Shown here in pieces: positions 4,564-47,881 of a stretch of 64,000 bases of DNA; position 1 is the first letter of the stretch; each line of letters starts with the position of its first letter. This DNA is from Candidatus Doudnabacteria bacterium. GTDB taxonomy: Bacteria > Patescibacteriota > Doudnabacteria > UBA920 > O2-02-FULL-48-8. The translations under genes and the position numbers were made by a program. The notes beneath the pieces are model-generated. The model was given only the letters and a program-made list of their open reading frames with translations. It did not search any database and was not told the origin of the DNA. The stretch lies in assembly GCA_025450105.1 (NCBI GenBank), contig JANWIA010000024.1:229-64228 (forward strand), in the 5' to 3' direction.

Positions 4564-5553
4564 ATGGGAACAATTAAGAAATTTATCAAACACAACTACC
4601 GTCACTTTAATTCCGCGGTTGTTGTTGATGCGTCCGAGGCCTATGTCGATTTTTTGGCCAAGGGCAACAAAATGATGGTGACATTGGCTGGTGCCATGAG
4701 CACTGCGGAGCTGGGATTAACTTTGGCGGAAATGATCCGCCAGGACAAAGTTCATGCAATTACTTGCACTGGAGCCAATTTAGAGGAAGATATTTTCAAT
4801 TTGGTGGCGCACAATCATTACGTGCGGGTGCCTCATTACCGACAATTATCGTCACAGGATGAGGTCGACTTGCTAAATAAAGGTTTGAACCGCGTTACGG
4901 ATACGACAATTCCGGAAGAAGAAGCTATGCGCAAAATTGAACGCCACATTATTAAATTATGGAAACGGGCTGATGATGCCGGCGAAAGATTTTTTCCGTA
5001 TGAATTCATGTACCAGATGATCCGCGAGAACATGCTCAAGGACGAAATGCAGATTGATCCAAAAGATTCCTGGCTCATTGCGGCCTGTGAAAAGAATTTG
5101 CCGATTTGGACCCCAGGCTGGGAAGATTCCACACTCGGAAATATTTTTGTGGCACTGACCAAAGGCCGTGGCAAAAATTATTACGGCGAAAATATCAAAA
5201 ATATTTCCACTGTTAAGACCGGCTTGGAAGCAATGTCGTTTTTGATTGACTGGTATGTGGAAACTTCTAAGAAATCGGAAATCGGATTCTACCAAATTGG
5301 CGGCGGCATTGCCGGTGATTTCCCGATTTGTGTAGTACCGCTTATCCAGCAAGACTTAAAGCAGAAAGTAAGATTGTGGGGATATTTCTGCCAGATTTCC
5401 GATTCCACAACTTCTTACGGTTCCTACTCCGGCGCCGTACCGAATGAAAAAATCACTTGGGGCAAGCTTGATGTTAACACTCCGCGCTTCGTTATTGAAT
5501 CTGATGCCACAATTGTTGCACCGTTAATGTTCGCATACATCTTGAATCAATAA
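4564..5553 (+). CDS. Deoxyhypusine synthase-like protein (homospermidine synthase-like)
   Basis: The sequence shows DHS family similarity throughout its 329 aa. It lies between a decarboxylase and agmatinase. Confidence 0.7.
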   Translation: MGTIKKFIKHNYRHFNSAVVVDASEAYVDFLAKGNKMMVTLAGAMSTAELGLTLAEMIRQDKVHAITCTGANLEEDIFNLVAHNHYVRVPHYRQLSSQDEVDLLNKGLNRVTDTTIPEEEAMRKIERHIIKLWKRADDAGERFFPYEFMYQMIRENMLKDEMQIDPKDSWLIAACEKNLPIWTPGWEDSTLGNIFVALTKGRGKNYYGENIKNISTVKTGLEAMSFLIDWYVETSKKSEIGFYQIGGGIAGDFPICVVPLIQQDLKQKVRLWGYFCQISDSTTSYGSYSGAVPNEKITWGKLDVNTPRFVIESDATIVAPLMFAYILNQ

Positions 5554-9387: not shown

Positions 9388-10596
9388 ATGCCAAACAGTA
9401 ATCTCAGTAGTGCAAAAAACGCAAAGAACGATGAGTTTTATACCCAGTACAGCGATATTCAAAAAGAGATTGAAGCGTATTTGGAATACAACCCAGATGT
9501 ATTCCGCGACAAGGTGGTGTATTGCAACTGTGACGATCCATATGAGAGTAATTTTTTTCGATATTTTGTGCTCAATTTCAAGAAACTTGGATTGAAGCAG
9601 CTTATTACTACTAGCTATAAACCTTCACCCGTTGCCAATACACAATTGGGATTGTTGGGTGATGATAAAACTCTTACGAAATCAAAAGGCCGTCCTAAGT
9701 TAACCGCCAACAAGTTCATTATCAACGAAGTGCATGATATAGATGGTAATGGTGAGTTCAACTTAAAAGATGTCGCTAAGCAGTTAAAGGCTAACAAACA
9801 TAACGAATGGACACCACTAGAAGGCGAAGGCGACTTCCGTAGCGACGAGTGTGTTGACCTGCTTAACCAATCCGATATCGTGGTAACGAATCCACCGTTC
9901 AGTCTGTTTCGCGAATATGTTAAACAACTTTTTGATTATAAAAAAAAGTTTGTGATTATTGGTAATAAAAACAACGTGACATCGAAGGAAATTTTTCCCT
10001 TGTTTAAAGCCAATAAAATGTGGTCAGGAAGAACAGAATGGTCTGGTGGGTTGTGGTTCGTAACGATGGATGACGGTGATGTTGACAAGGTGATTGATGG
10101 TGTCAACATGAAAAATGTGCCTGCTATTTGGTTGACAAATCTCGACCACGGACGTCGTCATCAACCATTGCCACTTATGACAATGGAAGAAAATTTGAAA
10201 CACAGCAAACACAAAGAAATTAAAGGTAAAAAGGCATATGATAAATATGACAATTACGATGCTATAGAAGTGTCATTTACAGATGCTATCCCAAGTGATT
10301 ATGACGGCGTAATGGGTGTACCGATTAGTTTTTTGGACAAATATAATCCCGACCAATTTGAAATTGTTGGTATAACTTCTGGAAGAGATGAATTTGAAAG
10401 TAGGCCTTCAAAAAAGTACTTAAACCCCCAACAACATAATCCGAATGGCACCATAACGAATGGAAGTAAAGCAAATACTCGTGCGACAATTCTGTTAAAG
10501 AATATTCCTTCCGATATTTATTACACCGCAGATAATGCGAGCGGACCCCTTATGATTGCGTATGCGAGAATTTTAATTAAGCATAAGAAAAAATAA
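9388..10596 (+). CDS. N6-adenine DNA methyltransferase, EcoRI-methylase-like family
   Basis: The N-terminus reads KNAKNDEFYTQ and the catalytic NPPF motif (VVTNPPFSLF) is present. The gene starts 9 nt after the secA stop. Confidence 0.8.
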   Translation: MPNSNLSSAKNAKNDEFYTQYSDIQKEIEAYLEYNPDVFRDKVVYCNCDDPYESNFFRYFVLNFKKLGLKQLITTSYKPSPVANTQLGLLGDDKTLTKSKGRPKLTANKFIINEVHDIDGNGEFNLKDVAKQLKANKHNEWTPLEGEGDFRSDECVDLLNQSDIVVTNPPFSLFREYVKQLFDYKKKFVIIGNKNNVTSKEIFPLFKANKMWSGRTEWSGGLWFVTMDDGDVDKVIDGVNMKNVPAIWLTNLDHGRRHQPLPLMTMEENLKHSKHKEIKGKKAYDKYDNYDAIEVSFTDAIPSDYDGVMGVPISFLDKYNPDQFEIVGITSGRDEFESRPSKKYLNPQQHNPNGTITNGSKANTRATILLKNIPSDIYYTADNASGPLMIAYARILIKHKKK

Positions 10597-10597
10597 T

Positions 10598-11770
10598 ATG
10601 ATAACAACTTTAAAAACAAACATTACTGTTAAAGATATTTGCGAAGGGTTCGTTTATAACGAACTGGAAGGTAAAGGTCTATTCGGTTTGTCTGGCAAGC
10701 TCACTATTCAGCCGGAGTATCAGCGTAACTATCTATATAAAGATGAAAAGCGAGAAGCTAGCGTTATTGAATCAATTCTCAAAAAATATCCAATAGGTTT
10801 GATTTACTTTAATAAAGTAAATAAGGATAAATTCGAAGTTTTGGATGGACAACAACGCATTACTAGTATTGGACGTTTTGTAACTGGTAAATTTCCTATA
10901 AAAGATGAAAATGGTCACGAGCAATATTTCGATGGCATGGCCCCAGAGAAACGAACTAGAATTGAGAATACCAAACTACTGATTTACGAATGTGAAGGAG
11001 AAGAAGCTGATATTATGAACTGGTTTGAAACTATCAATATTGCCGGGATTCCACTGAATGAACAAGAAAAAAACAATGCGGTATATTTTGGACCATTCGT
11101 AACACATGCCAAGCAAGAATTTAGTAACAGTAAAAATGCGAACATTCAGAAGTGGAACTCTTATATAAATGGTACTGCTAGACGTCAGGATTTTTTGCAT
11201 ACAGCTCTAGATTGGGTAAGTGCTTCTAAAGGTATTACTATCCGTGAATATATGAGTAGTCATCGTCGCGCTACAGATATAAAGGAATTAAAAACTTACT
11301 TTAATAATGTACTGGATTGGGTTTCTGGAGTGTTTACCGATGTAGAGACTGAGATGCGTGGGCTTGAATGGGGACGTTTATATGAAAAATTTCACAAGAA
11401 AAATTATAATCCTGAAAAACTTTCAGGAGAAGTACAGAAATTCCTAACTGACAGTTTTGTAACAGATCGAAAAGGTATTTTTGAATATATCCTTGGTGGG
11501 TCTCAAGACAAAAAATTACTCAATATAAGAGTTTTCAGTGAAGCTGTAAAGAAAGACACGTACTCAAAGCAAACTGCCGAAGCCGAAAAAAAAGGAAAAT
11601 CAAATTGCTCGTATTGTGCTATTGGACATGATGCCAACAAGAGTAAGATTTGGAAACTTTCCGAAATGGATGCTGATCATGTCACAGCTTGGAGTAAGGG
11701 AGGTAAAACAGCAATAAATAACTGTGAAATGTTATGTAAACCTCACAATCGTGCAAAGGGCAACAGGTAG
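10598..11770 (+). CDS. DUF262 (ParB-like nuclease/NTPase) plus C-terminal His-Me finger (DUF1524/HNH-like) nuclease, GmrSD/SspE-like architecture
   Basis: The N-terminal half has IQPEYQRNYLY and LDGQQRITSI. The C-terminal half has CSYCAIGHD ... DADHVTAWSKGG ... NNCEMLCKPHNRAKGN. The gene starts 1 nt after the methyltransferase stop. Confidence 0.75.
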   Translation: MITTLKTNITVKDICEGFVYNELEGKGLFGLSGKLTIQPEYQRNYLYKDEKREASVIESILKKYPIGLIYFNKVNKDKFEVLDGQQRITSIGRFVTGKFPIKDENGHEQYFDGMAPEKRTRIENTKLLIYECEGEEADIMNWFETINIAGIPLNEQEKNNAVYFGPFVTHAKQEFSNSKNANIQKWNSYINGTARRQDFLHTALDWVSASKGITIREYMSSHRRATDIKELKTYFNNVLDWVSGVFTDVETEMRGLEWGRLYEKFHKKNYNPEKLSGEVQKFLTDSFVTDRKGIFEYILGGSQDKKLLNIRVFSEAVKKDTYSKQTAEAEKKGKSNCSYCAIGHDANKSKIWKLSEMDADHVTAWSKGGKTAINNCEMLCKPHNRAKGNR

Positions 11771-11805
11771 GTAACTAGGTCAGTAAATAAATTTTTATTT
11801 TTTTT

Positions 11806-12177
11806 ATGAAACAGTTGTTATTGGAAAAAGCGGTGTATTATAACCCAAATCAAGGTCCCGAGCACGGGACTGATGTTACGGATGATTTAAGAGCCCAAAT
11901 TGTAGACGGAGCGCTATTCTATAACGGTATTTATAATAATATATTTCCTGATAACTTTAAAAGAATAGACAAAAAATTAAGAATAGAGCTAACGTATAGA
12001 GGGAAAAAGTATCTTAAAATTTATTCGGAAAATGAAAAAATAAACTTACCAAGAGATCTTGGTTCAGTAATTAATAAGTGGTGGGAAAGTAATTGGTTTC
12101 AAGTTTTTGTTTTTGTAAGTGCTATTTTGGGTGTTTTGGGTTTTATTATTACAATAGTTGGGCTAGTAAATAATTGA
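11806..12177 (+). CDS. Hypothetical small protein with C-terminal transmembrane helix
   Basis: The 123-aa protein ends in a hydrophobic tail (WFQVFVFVSAILGVLGFIITIVGLV). It follows the nuclease and has an SD-like context. Confidence 0.5.
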   Translation: MKQLLLEKAVYYNPNQGPEHGTDVTDDLRAQIVDGALFYNGIYNNIFPDNFKRIDKKLRIELTYRGKKYLKIYSENEKINLPRDLGSVINKWWESNWFQVFVFVSAILGVLGFIITIVGLVNN

Positions 12178-12199
12178 AGTATTGTTTACTATAATACTA

Positions 12200-12228
12200 A
12201 AAACCGCAGCTCGATTGCCGCGGTTTTT
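12200..12228. terminator. Bidirectional intrinsic terminator
   Basis: The hairpin AAAACCGCAGC-tcgatt-GCCGCGGTTTT is flanked by an A-run and a T-run. Confidence 0.75.
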
Positions 12229-12252
12229 AAGTTTTTGTTTTGAACGATCGCA

Positions 12253-12561
12253 TTAGATTTTAGAAATAATGCTTGAATAACGGTCTGAGTTGTTTGGATT
12301 GTAATCTAGTCTAATATCAAAAGTATTGTTAGTTACTTCGATACAAGTAATTTCAGAGACATTAAATCTTCTCCAAGCGGGAATTGATCCAGTTTGGCTA
12401 TATCCTTCCGTTTGATAACCATCAAATAGTGTTTTTCCAGTAGAACTTACATAGACTATGTATGGGTCGATGGTTCGACTCAAAGAATTTTCGTAATTTA
12501 CAATAATACTTTTTTGGTTTTCTATTGCAAATTGAATCTCGTTCTCAAATTTGTAATTCAT
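12253..12561 (-). CDS. Small WYL-like domain protein (hypothetical)
   Basis: The 102-aa protein has a WYL-like pattern (DPYIVYV ... AWRRFNVSEITCIEV). An SD-like AAAGGAG lies upstream. Confidence 0.4.
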   Translation of the reverse strand: MNYKFENEIQFAIENQKSIIVNYENSLSRTIDPYIVYVSSTGKTLFDGYQTEGYSQTGSIPAWRRFNVSEITCIEVTNNTFDIRLDYNPNNSDRYSSIISKI

Positions 12562-12772: not shown

Positions 12773-12986
12773 GCCCAAGTATTGAAATGGTATAATTACT
12801 ACATAAGTTCATTCAAACTGAATAGTGACAATCAAAGTATTGCTTTAACTCGGTGTCTTTTTATTGATATTTACTTACTTATTTAGTTCTCGCGTGTTCG
12901 ACAGGCCACAACAAATTACAGAAGTTTGGGATGATCAACACCCAAGAACGTAAAAAGTTAATACCAAATAAATAGACAAAAGAAAA

Positions 12987-13019
12987 GAGCCCCATCCAGT
13001 TGCTGGATGGGGCTCTTTT
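12987..13019. terminator. Bidirectional intrinsic terminator at the left edge of the GC-rich island
   Basis: A perfect hairpin AGAGCCCCATCCAG-ttgc-TGGATGGGGCTCT is flanked by A-runs and T-runs. Confidence 0.8.
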
Positions 13020-13040
13020 TGGTTTCGGCGGCACATCGAC

Positions 13041-13262
13041 TTAGGCTGCGGCTTTGAGGGCGACGCCGCAGCAGAAACAGAACTTGAAGCTTGGATCTGC
13101 GGCCCACACGTGGTGGAACTCTTCGCAGCGCTCCAGTGCCGAGAACTTGGGATCGACTTCGGTGCCGCACTCCTTACAGAAGCGGCACGAGATCGAGTCG
13201 TCCTTCCTCGGCTTCTCCACGCGTTGGTGCAGGGCTACGTTGGCGCAGGTTGTTGCTGGCAT
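13041..13262 (-). CDS. Small Cys/His-rich protein (73 aa), hypothetical
   Basis: An ATG start follows a GAAGGA SD. The protein contains CRFCKECGT ... CEEFHH ... CFCCG. It lies 18 nt downstream of the 52-aa ORF in a GC-rich context. Confidence 0.5.
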   Translation of the reverse strand: MPATTCANVALHQRVEKPRKDDSISCRFCKECGTEVDPKFSALERCEEFHHVWAADPSFKFCFCCGVALKAAA

Positions 13263-13280
13263 TGCATCCTTCTTTCCTTG

Positions 13281-13439
13281 TTACGCGGCGGTGATGCCAA
13301 GACGCTTGGCCTTCTCGAGGTTCTTGTCGTGGTCGTGGTTGGTGACGCACTCGCAGGTGCCCTTGAGGCAGGCTTTGAGCCGCGCTCGCCAAATGGCAAG
13401 CCTGAGTGTTTCCAGGTCGAGCTTCTTAAGATGGCGCAC
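13281..13439 (-). CDS. Small protein (52 aa, GTG start), hypothetical
   Basis: An AAGGAGG SD lies 8 nt upstream of GTG. The protein reads VRHLKKLDLETLRLAIWRARLKACLKGTCECVTNHDHDKNLEKAKRLGITAA. It is absent from the ATG-only ORF track. Confidence 0.5.
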   Translation of the reverse strand: MRHLKKLDLETLRLAIWRARLKACLKGTCECVTNHDHDKNLEKAKRLGITAA

Positions 13440-13463
13440 TTTTCTATCCTCCTTGAATGACGG

Positions 13464-13495
13464 ATTATACTAGCATTTACTGGCCAAATTGTCAA
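13464..13495 (-). promoter_or_regulatory. Strong sigma70-like promoter (TTGACA-N17-TGcTAGTAT/TATAAT) driving the minus-strand small-protein operon
   Basis: Read on the minus strand, the sequence is TTGACAatttggccagtaaatgcTAGTATAAT. It is followed by an SD and the GTG start. Confidence 0.65.
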
Positions 13496-13532
13496 TCCAA
13501 GCGTAGAATAGGGATGAAGCAAGAGGTGGGTT

Positions 13533-13754
13533 ATGCCAACAATGACGCTTCGTCTCGTTACGGAAAAAGGAGAAGAGACCATTCGGGAATATCGCTGCGA
13601 TTGGCCGGGTCTTTGCCAGGACCTTGCAGTGACCTCTGTCGGTCTCAGTGAATTCGGAACGCTGATAAGCTTTTGCAGTAACCATCTGAAGATGTATGCC
13701 GAGCAGGGGGAGTCAGAAGGAGGTTTGGGTGCCCGAGATTACTATGACGATTGA
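13533..13754 (+). CDS. Small protein P1 (73 aa), paralog of P2, with a C-x-C/C-x2-H metal-binding-like motif
   Basis: An SD-like AAGAGGTG lies 4 nt upstream. The protein contains YRCDWPGLC ... FCSNH. Confidence 0.5.
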   Translation: MPTMTLRLVTEKGEETIREYRCDWPGLCQDLAVTSVGLSEFGTLISFCSNHLKMYAEQGESEGGLGARDYYDD

Positions 13755-13914
13755 AGTTGATGGGCAAGTGGATCGGATAAGTAAATATTTCTGCGATTCG
13801 CGGAATTGTCTGGAAGAGGCGAGTGAACTACATGTAATTGCGAGCCTGCGGCAAAGGGTTTTTCTTTGCCCCAAACACGCGCTCGAGCTCTATCACAGAC
13901 AGATGAGAAAATGA
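13729..13914 (+). CDS. Small protein P2 (61 aa, GTG start), paralog of P1
   Basis: A GAAGGAGG SD lies 5 nt upstream of GTG. The protein contains YFCDSRNC ... LCPKH. It overlaps the end of P1 by 26 nt, consistent with translational coupling. Confidence 0.5.
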   Translation: MPEITMTIEVDGQVDRISKYFCDSRNCLEEASELHVIASLRQRVFLCPKHALELYHRQMRK

Positions 13915-13949
13915 GGCTCAGCCAGCAATGGTTGGGCCTTTCTCTTAGG

Positions 13950-14090
13950 CAAAATAAAAAGGCGACTACGGTCTTCTGTAGTCGCCCTCTCGTGGAGTTG
14001 TGTTAGTGTCCGATGTGCTTCGCTGGTTGCCCTTATGGGTCCATGAATTCGTACATAGGCTTTCCTCCTGTCCTGGATAAATGATAAACC
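13950..14090 (-). ncRNA. Compact promoter-to-terminator unit (about 130 nt) carrying only a 7-codon ORF (MYEFMDP); candidate small RNA or leader peptide
   Basis: The promoter is at 14081-14109. An AGGAGG SD lies 7 nt upstream of the ATG at 14056 and the stop is at 14033-14035. The terminator is at 13951-13986. Confidence 0.35.
13951..13986 (-). terminator. Intrinsic terminator (hairpin GGCGACTACGG/CTGTAGTCGCC plus T-run on the minus strand)
   Basis: On the minus strand the hairpin is followed by TTTTTATTTT. It also lies just after the P2 stop on the plus strand. Confidence 0.7.
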
Positions 14091-14109
14091 TATGTAATAA
14101 ATTTTGCAA
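14081..14109 (-). promoter_or_regulatory. Sigma70-like promoter TTGCAA-N17-TATCAT
   Basis: Read on the minus strand, the sequence is TTGCAAaatttattacataggttTATCAT. Confidence 0.5.
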
Positions 14110-14120
14110 AAGCTCATTTT

Positions 14121-14190
14121 GTCATTGCGAGGAGCGGAGCGACGTGGCAATCTTCTAGAATAAGATTGCTTCGCTTCGCTCGCAATGACA
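14121..14190. repeat. Imperfect 70-nt palindrome built from two inverted copies of the motif GTCATTGCGAG...GCAATCTT
   Basis: The outer 11-bp arms are GTCATTGCGAG and CTCGCAATGAC. The inner arms are GCAATCTT and AAGATTGC. The motif recurs at 20963-20995. Confidence 0.6.
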
Positions 14191-14207
14191 GGGTAAGCAA
14201 AGTAAAA

Positions 14208-14237
14208 AGGGTCTCACCGTGTGGTGGACCCTTTTTT
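14208..14237 (-). terminator. Intrinsic terminator (GGGTC...GACCC hairpin plus T-run) overlapping the stop of the Zn-ribbon gene
   Basis: The sequence reads AAAAAGGGTCtcaccgtgtggtGGACCCTTTTTT. It is bidirectional. Confidence 0.7.
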
Positions 14238-14375
14238 GGCAGCAGCCAGTTCTTTGACTTCTGCCTTGTTCTTAAATTCCCGTTTGCATTTGCTGCACTG
14301 GACTGTGTTGTCCCAGAAGACAACCTCGCCGCCACATGTGGGGCAAGGTGTTTCGAGCCTGCCGTAATCATCCAT
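14214..14375 (-). CDS. Small zinc-ribbon protein (53 aa), hypothetical
   Basis: An AAGGAG SD lies 5 nt upstream of ATG. The protein reads MDDYGRLETPCPTCGGEVVFWDNTVQCSKCKREF and so on. Confidence 0.5.
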   Translation of the reverse strand: MDDYGRLETPCPTCGGEVVFWDNTVQCSKCKREFKNKAEVKELAAAKKGSTTR

Positions 14376-14384
14376 TTCTACTCC

Positions 14385-14564
14385 TTAACGAAAGATCGTG
14401 AATCGGGCGATTGCTAGGAACATGGTTCCAAAGATTAGTCCCGTTAGCAACCGCTGCCTGAAGCTTGAACAATCAAATTGCTTTTCGGCAATGTTCACAA
14501 CAAGCTGCCAGAGAAGCGCGTTCAGGCTTAGGAACAACAGCACACGAAGCGTTTCATCCGACAC
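14385..14564 (-). CDS. Small hydrophobic/membrane protein (59 aa, GTG start), hypothetical
   Basis: A GAGGTAGGTG SD is present. The stop overlaps the SD of the downstream Zn-ribbon gene. The protein is hydrophobic (LRVLLFLSLNALLWQLVV ... LLTGLIFGTMFLAIARF). Confidence 0.45.
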   Translation of the reverse strand: MSDETLRVLLFLSLNALLWQLVVNIAEKQFDCSSFRQRLLTGLIFGTMFLAIARFTIFR

Positions 14565-14578
14565 GATTCACCTACCTC

Positions 14579-14740
14579 TTACTTTATGGCTTGGTTGAGG
14601 GTTCTTGGTTTTTCCTTGTACCCTCCACAATCAACGCAGTCTTCACGTTTGCAGAGACGGATTGAGTTCGGGTTCTTTGGATCCAAGCGATAGTGGTCGC
14701 CTTCGGCGTGGCCGCATTCACAGTATTTCGCGAATTTCAA
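14579..14740 (-). CDS. Small zinc-ribbon protein (53 aa, TTG start), hypothetical
   Basis: An AAGGAGG SD lies 6 nt upstream of TTG. The protein reads MKFAKYCECGHAEGDHYRLD ... CKREDCVDCGGY. Confidence 0.45.
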   Translation of the reverse strand: MKFAKYCECGHAEGDHYRLDPKNPNSIRLCKREDCVDCGGYKEKPRTLNQAIK

Positions 14741-14841
14741 TTTTATCCTCCTTGATGAGAAAGCGTATCACGGATTGCTATGCAAATCAAGCTTCTATGG
14801 CGTGCAGGAATTCCAAAGTATATAATATTCAAGGACATTTT

Positions 14842-17663: not shown

Positions 17664-18452
17664 ATGAGATCAATTTGGACCGGTTCGCTAAGCTTTGGGC
17701 TAGTTAACATTCCCGTGCGGTTATATAGCGCCACAGCTGGGACAGAAATAAGCTTTAATATGCTTCACAAAAAGGATTTATCGCCAATTAAGTATGTCCG
17801 CATTTGCCGCAAGGACGGTAAGGAAGTGCCTTACGAGGAAATTGTAAAAGGCTACGAATACCAGAAAGGCGACTACGTGGTGCTGACTGAAGAGGATTTT
17901 AAGAAGATTAGCGCCAAAAAAACTAAGACCATCGACATTTTGGATTTTTCTATGGAGAGTGAAATCGACACAATTTATTTTGAAAAGCCTTATTATTTGG
18001 AACCGGAAAAAGGTGCAGAAAAAGCATACATTCTTTTGCGCGACGCCTTGAAGCAATCCAAGAAGGTTGGGATTGCGACATTTGTCATGCGCAACAAGGA
18101 ACACTTGGCCGCAATAAAAACATTTGAGGATGTTTTAGTTTTGAATCAGTTGCGTTTCCAGGACGAAATCCGAACACCAGATGAATTAAACCTACCGAAG
18201 GTTAAGGCCGCAGCAAAAGGCAAAGAAATAGAAATTGCCCTGTCGTTAATTGACCATTTAACGGGTAAGTTCAAACCGGAATCCTATAAAGATACTTACA
18301 AAAAGGATTTGGAAAAGATCATCAAAGCCAAGGCCAAGGGCAAGCCAATCAAGATTAAGGAAGAAAAAGAACCGCACGCCACAGAAGTTGCCGATATTAT
18401 GAAGTTGCTCAAGGAAAGTTTGGAAAAGGAACACGTTCGCGCCCGCGCATAA
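17664..18452 (+). CDS. ku: Ku protein (bacterial non-homologous end joining)
   Basis: The N-terminus reads MRSIWTGSLSFGLVNIPVRLYSAT and a Ku core is present. The length is 262 aa. Confidence 0.9.
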   Translation: MRSIWTGSLSFGLVNIPVRLYSATAGTEISFNMLHKKDLSPIKYVRICRKDGKEVPYEEIVKGYEYQKGDYVVLTEEDFKKISAKKTKTIDILDFSMESEIDTIYFEKPYYLEPEKGAEKAYILLRDALKQSKKVGIATFVMRNKEHLAAIKTFEDVLVLNQLRFQDEIRTPDELNLPKVKAAAKGKEIEIALSLIDHLTGKFKPESYKDTYKKDLEKIIKAKAKGKPIKIKEEKEPHATEVADIMKLLKESLEKEHVRARA

Positions 18453-18455
18453 TTC

Positions 18456-19064
18456 ATGAGCCTGGCTACATACAAGAAAAAACGAAAGTTCGATGCTACT
18501 CCGGAACCTTCTGGTAAGATTTTGAAGGGCAAAGGACCTCTCAAGTTTGTTATCCAAAAACATGCCGCTACTCGCCTGCATTATGATTTTCGAATTGAGC
18601 ACAAAGGGGTGTTAGTCAGCTGGGCTGTGCCAAAAGGGCCATCTCTCCGTGGGGAAGATAAACATTTGGCCATGTCGGTTGAAGACCATCCGCTCGATTA
18701 TATGAAGTTCGAGGGAGTTATCCCGGAAGGAAATTACGGGGCCGGTGTGGTAATTGTTTGGGATTTTGGAAATTATTTGGCTTTGGGTGCCCGAGACCGG
18801 GCGGAAAGCGAAAAATTGATTGCCGCCGGATTGAAATCCGGCCAAGTAAAAATTGTTTTGAATGGCGAAAAAGTTAAAGGTGGTTTTGCGTTTATCAAGC
18901 TTAAGAACGATAAAAAAGGGAATGCCTGGTTATTAATTAAAGAAAAAGACGCTTATCGGAAAAACGTCGATATCACTAAAAAAGATAAATCCGTATTGTC
19001 GGGAAAAAACTTGAAGCAGATGGAAAAAACAAAGAATCAATGGACTGGCCATGCCGCGCATTAA
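18456..19064 (+). CDS. LigD 3'-phosphoesterase domain protein
   Basis: The protein has the motifs HYDFRIEHKGVLVSWAVPKGPS and EGNYGAG. Confidence 0.85.
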   Translation: MSLATYKKKRKFDATPEPSGKILKGKGPLKFVIQKHAATRLHYDFRIEHKGVLVSWAVPKGPSLRGEDKHLAMSVEDHPLDYMKFEGVIPEGNYGAGVVIVWDFGNYLALGARDRAESEKLIAAGLKSGQVKIVLNGEKVKGGFAFIKLKNDKKGNAWLLIKEKDAYRKNVDITKKDKSVLSGKNLKQMEKTKNQWTGHAAH

Positions 19065-20970
19065 TTTATCAAATGCTCCGAGGGGTACAATGCCGCTAAA
19101 TGTTAAACCAATGTTGGCGACATTGGTGGACCAACCATTCGACGGACCCGAATGGTTGTTTGAAATAAAGTGGGATGGGTTTAGGACAATTGCACAAATC
19201 AAAAAGAAAAAAGTGGATTTGTATTCCCGCAATTTAGTTTCATTTACAGAACTCTTCACGCCAATCCAAAAAACTTTAAGCAAGTTGAATTTTGACGCAG
19301 TCTTGGATGGGGAAGTGGTTGTTGTCGACGACAAAGGCAAGTCCCATTTCCAGTTGTTGCAAAATTACAATAACACCGGCGAGGGTGCTGGCCGGCTAAT
19401 TTACTTTGTCTTCGATATTTTATATTTGGATGGCCGCGATCTTCGCGGACTTCCGCTGATTGAGCGCAAGGAGATTCTGAAGAAGATCTTACCGAAAACG
19501 AAAAACGTTCGATATTCAGACCATGTTTTGGAGCACGGAAAAAAGTTTTATCAGATCGCCCAAAAGCAGGATCTGGAAGGGATTATCGCCAAGAAGACTA
19601 CAAGCACTTATCAAATTGGCCGGCGTACAATGGACTGGTTAAAAATAAAATTGCACCATGAACAGGAAGCAGTGATTGTTGGCTTTACCGAACCCAAAGG
19701 AGGACGAAAGTATTTTGGCGCTTTGATTCTTGGGGTTTATGAAAATGCGAAACTAAAGTATGTCGGGCATACTGGCGGTGGATTCAATGAACAATTACTC
19801 AAAACCATTCACGGTAAATTAAAACCCTTAGTCCAAAAAGTATCGGCGTTTGAAACCATTCCCAAAACTAACGCGCCCGCAACTTGGGTCAAACCAAAAT
19901 TGATTGCCCAAGTAAAATTTGCCGAATGGACTGGCGACGGCCATATGCGCCAACCAATTTTTATTGGATTGCGAACCGATAAAAAACCAACTGCTGTTTC
20001 CAAGGAATTGCCAAAGGACATCAATCCCAAGTCTATGAAAACTTCAGGAAAGAAAAATTCAGAAGATCGAGAGTTAAAGATCAATAGTAATTTAGTAAAG
20101 ATTACACATTGGGACAAAGTCTACTGGCCAAAGGAAAAAATTACCAAAGGCCAGGTTATTGAATATTACAGAAAAATTTCCAAATACATTTTGCCGTACC
20201 TTAAGAACCGTCCGGAATCTTTGAACCGCCATCCGCACGGTATTGATGGGCAAAGTTTTTTCCAGAAGGATGTTGGCGACATGCCGCCGAAATGGGTTAA
20301 GACCCACAAAGTTTTTTCCGAATCCAACAACAAACATTTGAATTATTTGATTTGCCAGGATGAAGCCACGCTGGTTTACATGGCCAATCTGGGCTGCATT
20401 GAAATTAATCCGTGGAATTCCCATATTGGGAGTTTGGATAAACCAGATTATTTGATTGTCGATTTGGATCCTGAAGACATTTCATTTGATAAGGTTGTGG
20501 AGGCGGCACAGGTTACACATGAAGTCTTGAACAAACTTAAGGTCCCGAGCTACTGCAAAACATCCGGGGCAACTGGTTTACATATCTACATTCCGCTCGG
20601 GGCAAAATACACTTATGATCAGGCCAAACAATTTACCCAATTGGTCGTGACCATGGTCCATAATCGCTTGCCGAACACAACCAGTCTCGAGCGCCGACCA
20701 ATAAAGCGCCAGAAAAAAGTTTATTTGGATTTCTTGCAAAATCGCCGCGGGCAAACTCTGGCAGCCGCTTACAGCATCCGTCCAAAAGCAGGGGCAACCG
20801 TTTCCACGCCGCTGGATTGGAAAGAAGTAAAGAAAGGTTTGAGCCCAAAAAATTTCACCATGTTTAATATTTTTGACCGTCTGAAAAAGAAAAGCGATTT
20901 GTGGAAGCCGGTTTTAGGAAAAGGCGTAGATTTGAAAAAAGTTTTAGCGCGGCTTGAAAATTCAAAATGA
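19051..20970 (+). CDS. ligD: DNA ligase D, ligase plus primase-polymerase domains
   Basis: An ATP-dependent ligase signature (EIKWDGFR) is followed by a C-terminal LigD polymerase domain. The gene overlaps the PE ORF by 14 nt. Confidence 0.88.
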   Translation: MPRINLSNAPRGTMPLNVKPMLATLVDQPFDGPEWLFEIKWDGFRTIAQIKKKKVDLYSRNLVSFTELFTPIQKTLSKLNFDAVLDGEVVVVDDKGKSHFQLLQNYNNTGEGAGRLIYFVFDILYLDGRDLRGLPLIERKEILKKILPKTKNVRYSDHVLEHGKKFYQIAQKQDLEGIIAKKTTSTYQIGRRTMDWLKIKLHHEQEAVIVGFTEPKGGRKYFGALILGVYENAKLKYVGHTGGGFNEQLLKTIHGKLKPLVQKVSAFETIPKTNAPATWVKPKLIAQVKFAEWTGDGHMRQPIFIGLRTDKKPTAVSKELPKDINPKSMKTSGKKNSEDRELKINSNLVKITHWDKVYWPKEKITKGQVIEYYRKISKYILPYLKNRPESLNRHPHGIDGQSFFQKDVGDMPPKWVKTHKVFSESNNKHLNYLICQDEATLVYMANLGCIEINPWNSHIGSLDKPDYLIVDLDPEDISFDKVVEAAQVTHEVLNKLKVPSYCKTSGATGLHIYIPLGAKYTYDQAKQFTQLVVTMVHNRLPNTTSLERRPIKRQKKVYLDFLQNRRGQTLAAAYSIRPKAGATVSTPLDWKEVKKGLSPKNFTMFNIFDRLKKKSDLWKPVLGKGVDLKKVLARLENSK

Positions 20971-20995
20971 TTGTCATTGCGAGCGATTAGCGAAG
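20963..20995 (+). repeat. Copy of the TGTCATTGCGAGCGA(TT)AGCGAAGCAATCT motif
   Basis: About 28 of 30 nt match the reverse complement of 14166-14198. Confidence 0.6.
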
Positions 20996-21042
20996 CAATC
21001 TAAACTTTGGTATGATAAATACACCTATTGAAAGGAGTATGC

Positions 21043-23306: not shown

Positions 23307-23328
23307 ATGTAGCTTAAATTAGCCAAAA

Positions 23329-23372
23329 AACACCCCTAGGATCTTGACAAATGGGGTGTTTTTTGCTAGTAT
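23329..23372 (+). promoter_or_regulatory. Terminator hairpin (AACACCCC/GGGGTGTT plus T-run) with an embedded promoter TTGACA-N17-TAGTAT
   Basis: The -35 box lies in the hairpin loop. The promoter architecture matches that at 13464-13495. Confidence 0.6.
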
Positions 23373-23390
23373 TGGAGAAATTCAGAACCA

Positions 23391-23436
23391 CAGTATTGGC
23401 CGCAGTGTGTTTACAGTATTAGCCGCAGTGTGTTTA
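23391..23436 (+). repeat. Tandem 23-nt direct repeat (CAGTATTGGCCGCAGTGTGTTTA x2, one mismatch) in a 5' leader
   Basis: It lies immediately upstream of an AAGGAGG SD. Confidence 0.7.
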
Positions 23437-23448
23437 AGGAGGAGTATC

Positions 23449-23751
23449 TTGCACAATCGTCGCAATCGGCGCCGAGGTAGTCGAGCCCACTGGATCCACT
23501 GGGAAGTCATGTTTGATGGAGAGGCACACGAGACGTGGGCTCCAACCAAGAAGGCAGCCAAGAGCTTTGTGCGTCGGCGAGTTGCTGATGGCAAACGCCA
23601 CAAAATGTCGGACCTGTCACTGGACCAATTCACGGCGACTCCGACAGGGACGAAGCCGGGCACTCCCACTCCGTCGCGAGTCACCTCACCGGCAGCAATG
23701 CCAACCCCGGCCACTCGGCCGGTCGCGCAGCGCTTACTCTTTGAACTCTAA
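23449..23751 (+). CDS. Small basic protein with Pro/Thr-rich C-terminus (about 100 aa, TTG start), hypothetical, GC-rich
   Basis: An AAGGAGG SD lies 6 nt upstream of TTG. The protein reads HNRRNRRRGSRAHWIHWEVMFDGEAHETW ... TPTPSRVTSPAAMPTPATRP. Confidence 0.45.
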   Translation: MHNRRNRRRGSRAHWIHWEVMFDGEAHETWAPTKKAAKSFVRRRVADGKRHKMSDLSLDQFTATPTGTKPGTPTPSRVTSPAAMPTPATRPVAQRLLFEL

Positions 23752-23774
23752 AGGGTAAGCGCTGTTTTCTTTTG
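23729..23774 (+). terminator. Intrinsic terminator (9-bp stem AGCGCTTAC/GTAAGCGCT plus T-rich tract)
   Basis: The terminator overlaps the stop codon at 23749-23751. Confidence 0.65.
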
Positions 23775-23802
23775 TTTACGCAAAATATGGTACAATTAAT
23801 CC

Positions 23803-28110: not shown

Positions 28111-28186
28111 TTGATTGACCGCAAAGCTAATTAATGTTAAGCTGTGCTATCTTGAAATGTTATTTTTTTGCCAGTAAACTTCATAT

Positions 28187-31787: not shown

Positions 31788-31816
31788 TTGACAATACGCA
31801 AATTTTGTGCTATACT
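31788..31816 (+). promoter_or_regulatory. Consensus sigma70 promoter TTGACA-N17-TATACT
   Basis: It lies 18 nt upstream of the ATG at 31834. Confidence 0.65.
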
Positions 31817-34312: not shown

Positions 34313-36388
34313 ATGCCTGAACTAAACGACATCACAGTCTTCGCCAAAACCAGCTTCCGTAACCGGGAAGTGGCTTTTGGCATCCGCAGAGATGACCGCC
34401 GCCGCCATATGTATGTAATTGGAAAAACTGGTATGGGTAAAACCACTCTAATCGAAAATATGGTTATCCAGGACATTCTCAATGGCGAGGGTGTAGCCTT
34501 TGCGGACCCGCACGGCGATTCCGTGGAAAAGGTTTTGAATTACATTCCGTCCAACCGCATCAACGATGTCATTTACTTTAATCCGGCCGATACAGATTTC
34601 CCAATTGCCTTTAATCCGTTAGAAGCGGTTGACCCAAAGTACAAGCATTTGGTGGCATCTGGTTTGATGGGCGTCTTTACCAAAATCTGGGCTGGGGTCT
34701 GGAGCCCGCGCATGGAATATATTTTGAATAACACCATCCTGGCGCTTTTGGATTCTCCGGGCAACACCATGCTTGGTATCGCCCGCATGCTAGTCAACAA
34801 AACTTACCGCAAAAAAATTGTCGATAATATTAAGGATCCGGTTGTCCGGTCTTTCTGGGTCGATGAATTCGCCAATTACAACGATAAGTTCCGAACCGAG
34901 GCTATTGCACCGATCCAAAACAAAGTCGGACAATTTTTGTCATCGGCGATTATCCGTAACATTGTCGGACAAACCAAGAGTACGATTGATTTACGCCAAA
35001 TTATGGATGAACGCAAAATCTTTTTGCTTAATTTATCCAAGGGCCGCATTGGCGAGGACAGTTCGGCGTTGCTCGGAGCCATGATCATCACCAAATTGCA
35101 ATTGGCAGCCATGAGCCGGGTCGATGTACCAGAAGAAGAACGCAAGGATTTTTATTTGTATGTCGACGAATTCCAAAATTTTGCTACGGAATCTTTTGCT
35201 AGTATTTTATCTGAAGCCCGTAAATACCGCTTGAATTTGATTGTCGCCCACCAATATATCAACCAGTTGAGCAACGATAAGAACACCGTTGTCCGCGATG
35301 CGATCTTTGGCAACGTCGGGACATTGATTGTTTTCCGCGTCGGGGCTGATGACGCCGAGTTTCTGGAAAAAGAATTTGAACCGACCTATACTTTGAACGA
35401 TTTACTGAACCTGACCAAGTTCAACATCTATTTAAAATTAATGATCAACGGTGTCGCCTCAACTCCTTTTTCAGCACTGACCTTGCCGCCAATTTCCCAA
35501 CCAACACAAAACGAGGACACCGTGGTTAAGGTTTCGCGGGAACGCTACGGTACCGCCCGGCAAATTGTCGAGGAAAAAATCCACAAGTGGTTAGGTTCCG
35601 AATACCATGCCGAAGCCGCCCGTGTGGAAAGCGATTCGGTTAACGAAGATGATGCCCAGGAAAGTTTCCGGTTCAAGGAGCAAGTAAAACTGGATACCAA
35701 AACCGGTATGCCGGTTGCTGAAACTTTGAACCGCCCGGACCAAGTTACACCTTCAGCTCCTATGGCAGCTCCAAAACCTGCAACTCCTGTGCCTCCAAAA
35801 CCTGCAACGCCGCCACCCGCAGCTCGACCAATAGTACCTCCACCAAAACCAGTACCGCCGCGGCCAGCACAGCCAAAGGTAGAACGACCCCCAGAACAAC
35901 GTCCACAACAACAACCCGAACGCCGACAGCTTGAACGGAGATTCAAGCAGTCTTCTTCGCATCCGCAACGCCGCAGCACGGACAGGCAAAGCGAAAGACC
36001 AAAGCCTAAATCCAATAATCCGGTATGGGAAACAGTCAATAAACTTTCCCAGGACAAGCTTAAAGAAAGTGTTGAAAAGACTAACAGTGCTTTAGAATCA
36101 ATTAGTAAAACCTTAGAAACCTCCTTAAAAACGGAATTAAAAAAGGTAGAGGTCAACAAACCGGAACCGTGGCCAGAACCGGAACAAAGGATTTGGGAAC
36201 CAACACCAGAGCCAATGCCAACTATCCCTGAAGAGCAAGAGCAGGATAATGATCCATTCCCACCCGGCGGCAATGCACAGAGTCATTTGACTATGATTCC
36301 GCATAAAGACCACCCAGGAATAGCAGATGCCCTAAAAAAGGTCCCTAAGTTATCAAAAGTAAAACCGGGCGACAAGATTAAACTCTAA
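34313..36388 (+). CDS. VirD4/TraD/FtsK-HerA-like P-loop ATPase with Pro-rich low-complexity C-terminal tail
   Basis: Walker A is IGKTGMGKTT and Walker B is FYLYVDEFQNF. The tail contains PAPKPATPVPPKPATPPPAARP repeats. Confidence 0.6.
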   Translation: MPELNDITVFAKTSFRNREVAFGIRRDDRRRHMYVIGKTGMGKTTLIENMVIQDILNGEGVAFADPHGDSVEKVLNYIPSNRINDVIYFNPADTDFPIAFNPLEAVDPKYKHLVASGLMGVFTKIWAGVWSPRMEYILNNTILALLDSPGNTMLGIARMLVNKTYRKKIVDNIKDPVVRSFWVDEFANYNDKFRTEAIAPIQNKVGQFLSSAIIRNIVGQTKSTIDLRQIMDERKIFLLNLSKGRIGEDSSALLGAMIITKLQLAAMSRVDVPEEERKDFYLYVDEFQNFATESFASILSEARKYRLNLIVAHQYINQLSNDKNTVVRDAIFGNVGTLIVFRVGADDAEFLEKEFEPTYTLNDLLNLTKFNIYLKLMINGVASTPFSALTLPPISQPTQNEDTVVKVSRERYGTARQIVEEKIHKWLGSEYHAEAARVESDSVNEDDAQESFRFKEQVKLDTKTGMPVAETLNRPDQVTPSAPMAAPKPATPVPPKPATPPPAARPIVPPPKPVPPRPAQPKVERPPEQRPQQQPERRQLERRFKQSSSHPQRRSTDRQSERPKPKSNNPVWETVNKLSQDKLKESVEKTNSALESISKTLETSLKTELKKVEVNKPEPWPEPEQRIWEPTPEPMPTIPEEQEQDNDPFPPGGNAQSHLTMIPHKDHPGIADALKKVPKLSKVKPGDKIKL

Positions 36389-37557: not shown

Positions 37558-37773
37558 ATGCCTGACCGGGTTTCGCGCAAGCCTCAACCGGTAAGCTATC
37601 CGGTTGGGCCAAGAGTCGGTTTCGGCGAACTGCTTCGGCAAGTGCCGACCACACCGACTGCAGAACAACTGCAAGAACTTTCCTGGGAAGGAAACGGACT
37701 CCCGCCCGCGCCCGGATACAAACACACTCCGGACGAGATGTTCGTCCTCCCAGTCCCGCGCCGGTTGATGTGA
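37558..37773 (+). CDS. Small Pro-rich protein (71 aa), hypothetical, GC-rich
   Basis: A GGGGGAA SD-like sequence lies 5 nt upstream. The gene sits between two strong terminators. Confidence 0.35.
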   Translation: MPDRVSRKPQPVSYPVGPRVGFGELLRQVPTTPTAEQLQELSWEGNGLPPAPGYKHTPDEMFVLPVPRRLM

Positions 37774-37804
37774 CCTGTTCCTGCCCGGAAGCGGTCACCA
37801 ATGA

Positions 37805-37876
37805 GGCTCTAGCAATGTGCTAGAGCCTCTTCTTTTTGTCTAAAAAACCCTGACCGATTTGGTCAGGGTTTTTAAG
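37805..37876. terminator. Two back-to-back intrinsic terminators
   Basis: The first is GAGGCTCTAGCA-atgt-GCTAGAGCCTC plus a T-run. The second is AAAAACCCTGACC-gattt-GGTCAGGGTTTTT. Confidence 0.8.
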
Positions 37877-41523: not shown

Positions 41524-41598
41524 TGGGGAGTAGCCAAGCGGTAAGGCAACGGACTCTGAATCCGTCATTCGAAGGTTCGATCCCTTCCTCCCCAGCCA
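41524..41598 (+). tRNA. tRNA-Gln (anticodon CUG)
   Basis: The cloverleaf has a U1-A72 acceptor stem, anticodon loop CUCUGAA, T-loop TTCGATC and an encoded CCA. Confidence 0.8.
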
Positions 41599-41628
41599 AA
41601 AAATCATCACGGAAACGTGGTGGTTTTT

Positions 41629-42114
41629 TTAACAAAAAAAACTGCCAAAACCTGGGTAGGCTTTGGCAGTGTGGGTCATCTTGTCGTGGTCCACGGAGTT
41701 GAGGTAACGCACTAGGACCCAGTACCATCTATTGGCCTCATCTGGATCTCCGTTGGGATCAACGACCTTGATTTTTTGTCCTCTTTTGTTGTAGATGATT
41801 GCCCTCTCCAGCGTAACGTCCTCGATTGGAACAGGTAGGCCTGGCACGCGAGTTACGGTAACGCTGTACCAAAAGACCACGCCGCCCTTGTCGTGAAGGT
41901 TCTTGATCAGGCCGGTTTTGTGTCTGGTGGTTTTCATCCCACCATAGTAGGTAAACGGATCGATGAGCAGGTTCCTGACGTCGATCGGGGAAATCTTGGG
42001 CGCTTGAACCTGAACGGGTTTGGGTCGATTTGTCAGTTGGCTGACTCTCGGAGGTATGAGAAGTAGGCTCGCGACCAGGAATCCGAACATGAACACCACG
42101 TGGGATCGGTTCAT
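41629..42114 (-). CDS. Secreted or membrane-anchored hypothetical protein (161 aa), GC-rich
   Basis: An N-terminal hydrophobic segment is present. An AAGGAGG SD and a TTGACG-N17-TAGCAT promoter lie upstream. Confidence 0.5.
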   Translation of the reverse strand: MNRSHVVFMFGFLVASLLLIPPRVSQLTNRPKPVQVQAPKISPIDVRNLLIDPFTYYGGMKTTRHKTGLIKNLHDKGGVVFWYSVTVTRVPGLPVPIEDVTLERAIIYNKRGQKIKVVDPNGDPDEANRWYWVLVRYLNSVDHDKMTHTAKAYPGFGSFFC

Positions 42115-42137
42115 CGCATCCTCCTTATTCTGAACCT

Positions 42138-42166
42138 ATGCTAAGCTTTCAAAAAATTTTCGTCAA
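42138..42166 (-). promoter_or_regulatory. Promoter TTGACG-N17-TAGCAT (minus strand)
   Basis: The architecture matches the promoters at 13464-13495 and 23344-23372. Confidence 0.55.
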
Positions 42167-42207
42167 ACTTTAATCATGCTATAATTGGTCTACTTAACCC
42201 CACAAAC

Positions 42208-42477
42208 ATGTTTGGACAGCTCAAGGATATGTATAATTTGCGGAAACAGGCCCAAGAGATGCAAAAAATTATGGCCCAGGAAAGAGTCACTGGGTACTCT
42301 AACGACAAAACTTTTAGTATTGTATTAAATGGCAACCAGGAATTGCTCGAAGTCAACATTTCTCCTGAAATTAATTTGTCCCAACCGGAAATAGAAAAGA
42401 ACATTAAAGAAGCGTATGCCGATGCCCAGCAACAGTTGCGCTCGTTGATGGCCACTAAACTGCAAGGAATGATGTAA
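42208..42477 (+). CDS. ybaB: Nucleoid-associated protein YbaB/EbfC
   Basis: The 89-aa protein has a characteristic N-terminus. Confidence 0.8.
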   Translation: MFGQLKDMYNLRKQAQEMQKIMAQERVTGYSNDKTFSIVLNGNQELLEVNISPEINLSQPEIEKNIKEAYADAQQQLRSLMATKLQGMM

Positions 42478-46939: not shown

Positions 46940-46978
46940 GAGCCACTTGTCTGTGTTATGACAAGCGGCTGCTTCTGT

Positions 46979-47155
46979 TCAATTTCTCTGATGCCGATTC
47001 CGGGCCGGATCGAAAGGCGGGGAATTGCTTCTGCGCCCGCGGCACACGCGTCGGATGCGGACCTGGTCGTCGGTGATCCTCGCGAAGAGGTTTCGTCGGG
47101 CCGAGAACAGGACCGGGTACCGGGCACTGTGGTTGCGAACGCAATCTGTTTGCAT
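46979..47155 (-). CDS. Small Arg-rich ORF (58 aa), hypothetical, GC-rich
   Basis: A GGAGGT SD lies 6 nt upstream of ATG. The protein has a very basic composition. Its coding status is uncertain. Confidence 0.3.
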   Translation of the reverse strand: MQTDCVRNHSARYPVLFSARRNLFARITDDQVRIRRVCRGRRSNSPPFDPARNRHQRN

Positions 47156-47208
47156 GCGTTTACCTCCGTACAGGTTTATCAGAAGCCGGAATGCCTCTGA
47201 TGGCTAAA

Positions 47209-47235
47209 ATTTAACACTTTTTTAGCAACAGGTCA
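47209..47235 (-). promoter_or_regulatory. Promoter TTGACC-N16-TGTTAAATT (minus strand)
   Basis: It is divergent from the plus-strand promoter at 47280-47308. Confidence 0.45.
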
Positions 47236-47279
47236 AAATGGCCAGGTTTTGTTTGTTATGAGTTATTTTAAGGCTTAAG

Positions 47280-47308
47280 ATTGACAAGATCCCAATATTT
47301 TGGTAATG
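47280..47308 (+). promoter_or_regulatory. Promoter TTGACA-N17-TAATGT
   Basis: The -35 box is consensus. Confidence 0.5.
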
Positions 47309-47314
47309 TTTGTA

Positions 47315-47823: not shown

Positions 47824-47881
47824 CCAAAAAAGTTTCCAAATAATATTCTTTTGCTATACTTTACTAAAGGAAATAAACACT

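Follow-up and report, generated by a model that had tools for sequence, protein, structure and literature searches.

Phage morons are autonomous units that carry a promoter and a terminator of their own and deviate in GC content (Cumby, Davidson & Maxwell 2012, PMC3594210). As for the signals of translation, the anti-Shine-Dalgarno motif is reported to be absent from about half of Parcubacteria 16S rRNAs (PMC9297842). Here we analyse a stretch of 64,000 nucleotides (the window) from the chromosome of a member of the Patescibacteria (candidate phyla radiation), in which the backbone of secA, Ku/LigD, mnmA, H+-PPase, ABC-F, P-type ATPase and PCMT genes is interspersed with five GC-rich segments. 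Following a preliminary description of this DNA, we number these segments as cassettes 1 (12987-14760), 2 (23380-23775), 3 (37558-37773), 4 (41629-42114) and 5 (46940-47823). Three of them are preceded by, or contain, look-alike promoters of the form TTGACR-N17-TAGYAT. Judged by their sequence, these sites are predicted to act as the ordinary housekeeping sigma-70 promoter of the host. Our preferred reading, which we consider likely, is that such generic promoters drive moron-like, GC-rich accessory orphan units that occupy variable slots and derive from a GC-richer pool using Shine-Dalgarno sequences.

The pattern TTGACR-N17-TAGYAT, which was drawn up post hoc from the sites themselves, has exactly three matches in the window (0.02 expected from shuffled sequences). 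They precede the left operon of cassette 1 (13467-13495, minus strand, TTGACA-17-(tgc)TAGTAT), cassette 2 (23344-23372, plus strand, TTGACA-17-(tgc)TAGTAT) and cassette 4 (42138-42166, minus strand, TTGACG-17-(gct)TAGCAT). This bears out the report of three near-identical promoters at GC-rich cassettes; the second and third coordinates were right, while the start of the first site, placed at 13464, is 3 nt off (13467). The idea that the motif coincides with the GC-rich segments holds for cassettes 1, 2 and 4, whereas cassettes 3 and 5 contain no TTGACR-17-TAGYAT. Two of the three sites have 15 specified bases in common (TTGACA...TGCTAGTAT), and in two of the three the -10 box is extended by a TG, from which a single base separates it. 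The distance from site to start codon is 23-76 nt, with starts at 13439 (GTG), 23449 (TTG) and 42114 (ATG). The Shine-Dalgarno sequence AAGGAGG described downstream of each promoter is present at 13448-13454 (minus), 8 nt before the GTG of a 52-amino-acid (aa) open reading frame (ORF), at 23436-23442 (plus) and at 42120-42126 (minus).

All three sites have a -35 box near TTGACA, a 17-bp spacer and a -10 box of the form TAnnnT, an architecture that also occurs at ordinary genes. The unbiased pattern TTGAC-N17-TAnnnT has 12 sites in the window against 2.1 expected; five are at cassettes and at least three (28115, 31788 and 39966) lie directly upstream of ordinary genes. When the spacer is widened to 16-18 bp, there are 20 TTGAC-type sites. 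Examples from the backbone are TTGACG-16-TGG-TAGAAT at 2501 (gene 2552), TTGACA-16-TACAAT at 2941 (gene 2987), TTGACC-17-TGT-TAAGCT at 28115 (gene 28187), TTGACA-17-TGC-TATACT at 31788 (gene 31834) and TTGACC-17-TATACT at 39966 (gene 40014), and the genes they serve are ordinary ones of ~43% GC. With uniform scoring of the best -35/-10 pair for 57 backbone genes and 7 cassette units, the cassettes score 9.5-11.5, within the backbone range (maximum 12.5). Backbone promoters that equal or exceed the cassettes include the one at 31788 and TTGATA-16-TGC-TATAAT upstream of gene 29486. Boxes beginning with TAG (TAGAAT, TAGACT) are common among backbone genes, and many backbone starts have an extended -10 element (TGnTA...) close in front of them. 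TTGAC-type promoters occur at 5/8 cassette units versus 7/57 backbone genes (p = 0.004), but when only the 31 first-in-unit backbone genes are counted (7/31) the difference shrinks to p = 0.08, and the enrichment is at most weak.

We aligned nine promoters: the three focal ones, two from cassette 5, backbone promoter 31788 and three from L081 (GCA_034680565.1 contig JAXOUH010040077.1). L081 is the one relative used for syntenic comparison and spans 30.3-50.9 kb of the window, so that the slots of cassettes 1 and 2 lie outside it. Conservation is restricted to TTGAC and the -10 region. The 31788 promoter is almost base-for-base identical in the relative (L081 1551). Where cassettes 4 and 5-left (the left part of cassette 5) have their probable orthologues in L081, TTGAC-17 is kept and TAGYAT is replaced, giving TTGACC-17-TATTAT and TTGACT-17-TATTGT, respectively; the full pattern has a single match among 87 comparison loci and none in L081. 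The TAGYAT flavour of the -10 box thus appears not to be conserved even between probable orthologous promoters. We conclude that the three sites probably resemble each other because all sit near the same consensus, and not because they are copies or answer to a common regulator. The preliminary description had suggested co-regulation through a special promoter and had named, as the observation that would make the pattern uninformative, a generic promoter equally frequent before ordinary low-GC genes. The latter is essentially what we find: ordinary genes (2501, 2941, 28115, 31788, 39966) share the architecture, nothing beyond the hexamers aligns and the L081 counterparts lack TAGYAT.

What does distinguish the cassettes is their composition and their expression signals. 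In 300-nt windows the GC content is 0.48-0.54 for cassette 1, 0.57 for cassette 2, 0.59 for cassette 3, 0.52 for cassette 4 and 0.50-0.54 for cassette 5, against a background of ~0.43; across the cassettes it ranges from 0.47 to 0.62. GC content at third codon positions (GC3) is 0.77-0.79 for the ORFs at 13041-13262 and 13281-13439, 0.71 for 46979-47155 and 0.63 for 41629-42114, compared with 0.42-0.50 for backbone genes. A Shine-Dalgarno core (at least 5 nt of AAGGAGGTGA) precedes 10/11 cassette ORFs versus 8/57 backbone genes (Fisher p = 1.4e-6), and 7/11 cassette ORFs versus 10/57 backbone genes are on the minus strand (p = 0.0035). Of the terminator hairpins in the regions scanned, the longest close the cassettes, with stems of 12-17 bp. 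The segments are discrete and look foreign in composition. The GC, hairpin and blastn-short data therefore agree with the earlier statement that the segments lie in intergenic gaps, are otherwise unrelated and are bounded by strong terminators.

Backbone genes almost never have a Shine-Dalgarno sequence, and many have an extended -10 element (TGnTAnnnT) that ends 6-7 nt before the ATG. Examples are the starts at 23803, 36455, 42518, 48580, 50448, 28034 (minus) and 46830 (minus). This predicts that leaderless mRNAs are widespread in this genome.

Comparing each cassette with the window by blastn-short, we found only chance matches of 11-15 nt between cassettes. In a repeat scan of cassette 1 the only inverted repeats at the ends are the terminator hairpins, and at the ends of all cassettes the blastn-short comparison shows terminator palindromes only. 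No recombinase domain was detected among the cassette proteins scanned (ORF 13729-13914 being scanned as a longer reading, 13696-13914). With no similarity between cassettes, no terminal repeats and no transposase or integrase domain in the proteins scanned, we rejected the possibility of a single mobile-element family.

Neither of the cassette proteins that we searched in large protein databases, the 161-aa protein of cassette 4 and the 73-aa protein of cassette 1, has a real homologue. The 161-aa protein matches only itself among 5.8 billion clusters, and likewise when 1.84 billion representatives were scanned exhaustively with HMMER; the lone extra HMMER match, P0002, was discarded as an artefact of a 10-fold repeat. 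The 73-aa ORF has no match in a word-indexed protein database, not even to itself, though the database holds the contig's other proteins. It has apparently been left out of the annotation, and its place may have been taken by a shadow ORF of 139 aa that runs on the opposite strand (13054-13473, GC3 0.75). A search of IMG/VR viral contigs with three cassette proteins gave no relatives, and comparison of the cassette proteins with Pfam, PHROGs and PADLOC gave sub-threshold zinc-ribbon noise only.

To see how the slots behave in L081, we compared them with their flanking genes. The backbones are 65-76% identical in DNA and 68-91% in protein, but the intergenic slots do not align. Between mnmA and the H+-PPase gene, where the window has cassette 3 (71 aa, plus strand, lacking a separate promoter), L081 has an unrelated 144-aa gene on the opposite strand with a GC3 of 0.72 and its own signals (TTGAAA-17-tgcCATACT, AGGAGGA and a terminator). 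In the slot divergent from ybaB, cassette 4 (161 aa) is matched in position by a 166-aa ORF that likewise has an N-terminal hydrophobic segment (GC 0.50, TTGACC-17-TATTAT plus AAGGGGGA). After PCMT, the 58-aa ORF of cassette 5-left faces a 58-aa ORF at L081 17798-17974 (TTGACT-17-tgcTATTGT, AGGAGGG); the proteins start MQTDCVRNH and MQSQCVRPH, respectively. The remainder of this slot, cassette 5-right, is absent from L081, where a Mu Gam-like gene (GC3 0.61) is found instead, along with others. Cassette 3 and cassette 5-right were also considered as remnants of the L081 slot genes, for which tblastn gave no support.

Cassette 4 and the L081 ORF resemble each other weakly but significantly (BLASTP 30% over 74 aa, E = 4e-4), and 1/2000 shuffles reach the observed score (p about 5e-4) whether the hydrophobic segment is included or not. 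For cassette 5-left and its counterpart, E = 8e-4 and 9/2000 shuffles reach the score (p about 4.5e-3). Cassettes 4 and 5-left therefore have probable, very diverged orthologues in L081, and since they probably predate the split from this relative, they would not be recent insertions. The common origin of the insertions that had been suggested is not supported: the cassettes share no sequence, and two of them are probably older than the split. On this comparison the slots appear to be hot spots for GC-rich self-contained units, some of which seem to be old and to evolve far faster than their neighbours.

We propose the following account of the units. Each site would most likely fire constitutively and give a transcript with a short leader, a strong Shine-Dalgarno sequence and one to three small genes, which would stop at a long GC-rich intrinsic terminator. 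The units would be complete in themselves (promoter, ribosome-binding site, gene or genes, terminator) and would sit in variable intergenic slots. The backbone, in contrast, would rely mostly on extended -10 promoters, with very short leaders or none and no Shine-Dalgarno sequence. Most plausibly, the units entered at different times from a GC-richer, Shine-Dalgarno-using pool (phage or other mobile DNA); their horizontal origin is favoured, if unproven.

Several points weigh against this account. We infer promoter use and translation of the small ORFs, as well as horizontal origin, from what is directly observed, namely sequence anatomy, contrasts in composition and signals, the lack of homologues for the cassette proteins searched and the syntenic comparison. 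As homologues are lacking for the cassette proteins searched, no donor lineage can be named, and the case for horizontal origin consists only of contrasts in composition, signals and strand. Cassettes 4 and 5-left are GC-rich in L081 also, at a distance where synonymous sites are probably near saturation, which is a poor fit to recent import plus amelioration. The comparison involves one syntenic relative only, with the slots of cassettes 1 and 2 outside its coverage. Finally, cassettes 2 and 3 may not be protein genes, since GC is not distributed over their codon positions as in clear coding sequence.

The main rival explanation is that the cassettes are native, lineage-specific and fast-evolving genes, for example for surface or interaction proteins, and owe their full promoters, strong ribosome-binding sites and GC content to selection for high or special expression, within a genome where translation otherwise proceeds without Shine-Dalgarno sequences. 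Protein function hardly explains a GC3 that reaches 0.79 at synonymous sites, although it is true that GC-richness has been kept in both lineages and that the diverged L081 counterparts of cassettes 4 and 5-left have the same position and promoter layout. The N-terminal hydrophobic segment of the cassette 4 protein would be consistent with export and hence with such a role. Native genes would not, however, readily account for slots with wholly different contents (cassettes 3 and 5-right), one of which holds a phage-type Gam gene in L081, and both the minus-strand bias and the adjacency to a restriction-modification (R-M) island are typical of acquired DNA. We therefore regard this explanation as unlikely.

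GC-rich islands within an AT-richer genome are a classic signature of non-coding RNA, and some of the segments could be structured non-coding RNAs instead of small-protein genes, which we think rather improbable. The best candidate is cassette 5-right (47281-47825, plus strand), which has a promoter (TTGACA-17-(tgg)TAATGT, 47281-47309), a terminator with a 14-bp stem (47785-47815, plus strand) and a folding z-score of -2.9. Its GC-rich stretch of about 500 nt contains no convincing ORF in any frame, and reading TGA as a sense codon (genetic code 4) yields no long ORF either. It does contain two TAGTGGAGGG motifs 232 nt apart, each followed by a GTG and a 9-codon mini-ORF, one of which ends ...GRAPP-stop; when viral contigs were searched for relatives with two motif patterns, only chance matches were found. 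The region of cassette 3 has a z-score of -4.1 with its terminator and -2.1 without, and neither cassette 2 nor cassette 3 shows codon-position GC periodicity. On the other hand, at the gathering threshold Rfam returns the tRNA-Gln only, and nothing credible appears in cassettes 2 and 5 (5-right included) at E-values up to 5; no homologues were found for a covariation analysis. In cassettes 1, 4 and 5-left the start codons are correctly spaced from strong Shine-Dalgarno sequences, and several of these ORFs have a high GC3, indicating coding.

A dedicated regulon, in which the TAG(T/C)AT variant of the -10 box together with the -35 box would be read by one factor or an alternative sigma factor, is very improbable: the restriction of the exact pattern to GC-rich cassettes and the bases common to two sites speak for it, but the pattern postdates the sites, its hexamers are one or two bases from the sigma-70 consensus and from backbone promoters, the alignment contains no shared operator-like sequence, and the motif is missing from cassettes 3 and 5, from the probable orthologous promoters of L081 and from all but one of the comparison loci.

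Cassette 1 is a mosaic made up of four transcription units, with a GC3 of about 0.78 in the left operon and 0.48-0.57 in the rest. The left operon (minus strand) encodes the 52-aa ORF, which contains Cys and His residues (13281-13439, GC 0.60, GC3 0.79), and the 73-aa zinc-ribbon-like ORF (13041-13262, GC3 0.77), and ends in an intrinsic terminator with a 17-bp stem (12983-13019). Its promoter is overlapped back to back by a divergent one (13481-13509, plus strand, TGGCCA-17-TAGAAT) that serves a pair of overlapping small ORFs (13533-13754 and 13729-13914, plus strand). Each of the two has a Cx4-5C...CxxH arrangement and a Shine-Dalgarno sequence, and by eye they look paralogous. A mini transcription unit follows (13956-14109, minus strand), with promoter TTGCAA-17-TATCAT at 14081-14109, AGGAGGA, a 7-codon ORF (MYEFMDP, 14033-14056) and a terminator with a 14-bp stem (13956-13991). 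Its folding z-score is -4.0, terminator included, and its product may be either a leader peptide or a small RNA. The fourth unit is a three-gene operon (14214-14740, minus strand) for a 53-aa Cys/His-rich protein, a 59-aa hydrophobic protein that is possibly located at the membrane and a 53-aa zinc ribbon, with a Shine-Dalgarno sequence for each.

Adjoining cassette 1 is the low-GC (30-38%) R-M island (9388-12561), with genes for an EcoRI-like adenine methylase, a GmrSD/HNH nuclease and two small uncharacterised proteins, one with a weak WYL-like match. Because this low-GC island lies beside GC-rich cassette 1, we take this part of the window to be variable or devoted to defence. A palindromic element (GTCATTGCGAG...CTCGCAATGAC; spurious translation 'LRFARNDR') is found at 14118-14190 and at 20972-21001, where a half copy follows ligD. 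Similar sequence is present in another Patescibacteria contig (L034, about 1875-1971 and about 4952-4984), and its occurrence in this second contig suggests a dispersed short repeat family.

At cassette 2 (23324-23435 for hairpin and leader together), the -35 box of the promoter is placed within the loop of the trailing hairpin of the upstream gene (AAAAAACACCCC...GGGGTGTTTTTT). The 5' leader contains two tandem 23-nt repeats (ACAGTATTRGCCGCAGTGTGTTT, 23390-23435, plus strand) that abut AAGGAGG, and no stable fold is predicted (z = +1.4). The putative coding sequence is a 100-aa basic, Pro/Thr-rich ORF (23449-23751, plus strand, GC 0.60) with flat GC at codon positions 1, 2 and 3, followed by an intrinsic terminator with a 17-bp stem (23727-23765, plus strand). 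Cassette 3 consists of a 71-aa Pro-rich ORF (37558-37773, plus strand, GC 0.60) that comes directly behind mnmA; it lacks a separate promoter, its ribosome-binding site is weak, and two terminators follow (37803-37829 and 37843-37873). A gene resembling those of type IV secretion system coupling proteins (35672-36200, plus strand) has a C-rich, Pro-rich, low-complexity C-terminal region (GC 0.57, GC skew -0.29), at which the alignment with L081 breaks.

Cassette 4 encodes the 161-aa orphan protein (41629-42114, minus strand, GC3 0.63) with its N-terminal hydrophobic segment, and has a terminator at 41641-41670. Structure prediction gave a poor model (predicted local distance difference test score, pLDDT, 46.5). 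The cassette 4 promoter overlaps the divergent ybaB promoter (TGCTATAAT, 42177-42185), and a tRNA-Gln gene adjoins the cassette. In L081 the block of ybaB and the divergent cassette 4 gene (window 41524-42477) is found in inverted orientation across the tRNA-Gln gene from its place in the window (L081 11584-12714); the orientation of tRNA-Gln itself is unchanged, indicating a local rearrangement around the tRNA gene.

Cassette 5-left has its promoter at 47208-47236 (minus strand, TTGACC-17-(tgt)TAAATT) and a 58-aa Arg-rich ORF at 46979-47155 (minus strand, GC3 0.71) with GGAGGT as its ribosome-binding site. Downstream of cassette 5-right, a 56-aa Cys/His-rich protein (MDQHYVCTGSCNMVSDH..., 47882-48052, plus strand) has no Pfam match but does have a counterpart in L081 (18966-19110, 71% DNA identity), which makes it a conserved small protein that putatively binds metal.

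The closest relatives of the window's ABC-F protein are 75-81% identical and come mostly from metagenome contigs; names, where given, include Doudnabacteria, Parcubacteria and Patescibacteria. Among the five ABC-F relatives examined, only P0004/L081 is syntenic. A scan of species genomes with the H+-PPase gave, among the matches listed, relatives of at most 70% identity, none of them syntenic, and a metagenome search with the DUF8128 protein gave two short contigs only (50% identity). The window also has a complete set for non-homologous end joining (Ku, LigD phosphoesterase and LigD ligase/primase-polymerase, 17664-20970). That this set was a route by which foreign DNA fragments were captured is conceivable, but pure speculation.

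The promoter itself is of little moment, because it is the textbook sigma-70 consensus. The wider value of the locus is that accessory orphans can be separated from the backbone of an uncultured candidate-phyla genome by combining GC3, Shine-Dalgarno sequence, full -35 box, strong terminators and strand. The combined signals provide a practical rule to flag small genes, whether acquired or evolving fast, that escape annotation pipelines. They also raise the question of whether Shine-Dalgarno sequences function at all in a lineage that dispenses with them in its own genes. An improbable extension is that two expression styles coexist in this genome: a backbone with extended -10 promoters, no Shine-Dalgarno sequence and often leaderless mRNAs, and GC-rich orphan units of fast turnover in fixed intergenic positions, with full -35/-10 promoters, AAGGAGG and strong terminators. 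If this were true, the secreted-looking cassette 4 protein could be a fast-evolving host-interaction factor, and the ~0.5-kb unit at 47316-47820 might represent a non-coding RNA of a new type. If, in addition, the host 16S rRNA should lack the anti-Shine-Dalgarno tail, the AAGGAGG sites of the cassettes would survive as fossils from a foreign donor, although they might also define a switchable translation class.

Set beside known systems, the three sites correspond to the canonical sigma-70 promoter with extended -10 in their -35 box (TTGACA), 17-bp spacer, TAnnnT and, at two of three, the TG. There is no structural difference; position 3 of the -10 box is G here (TAGTAT, TAGCAT), as in several local backbone promoters. 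With genomic islets and orphan accessory genes at recombination hot spots, the cassettes share variable content at fixed positions, beside a tRNA gene (cassette 4) or an R-M island (cassette 1), an atypical composition and strand bias, and searched proteins that lack homologues. They differ in being very small (0.2-1.8 kb), and the scans revealed neither an integrase or transposase nor flanking direct repeats or att-like sites. Like phage morons, the cassettes are add-ons between conserved neighbours, with deviant GC and their own sigma-70 promoter and factor-independent terminator; in L081 the slot contents differ for cassettes 3 and 5-right, and cassettes 4 and 5-left have diverged counterparts. 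Promoter and terminator are both present in cassettes 1, 2, 4, 5-left and 5-right, whereas cassette 3 has terminators only and, unlike a moron, no promoter of its own. Further differences are that the cassettes lie in a chromosomal backbone (secA, mnmA, H+-PPase, ABC-F, P-type ATPase, PCMT) and not in a phage or prophage, and that two units, though highly diverged, are common to the relative. The cassettes are new orphan examples of autonomous accessory gene units.

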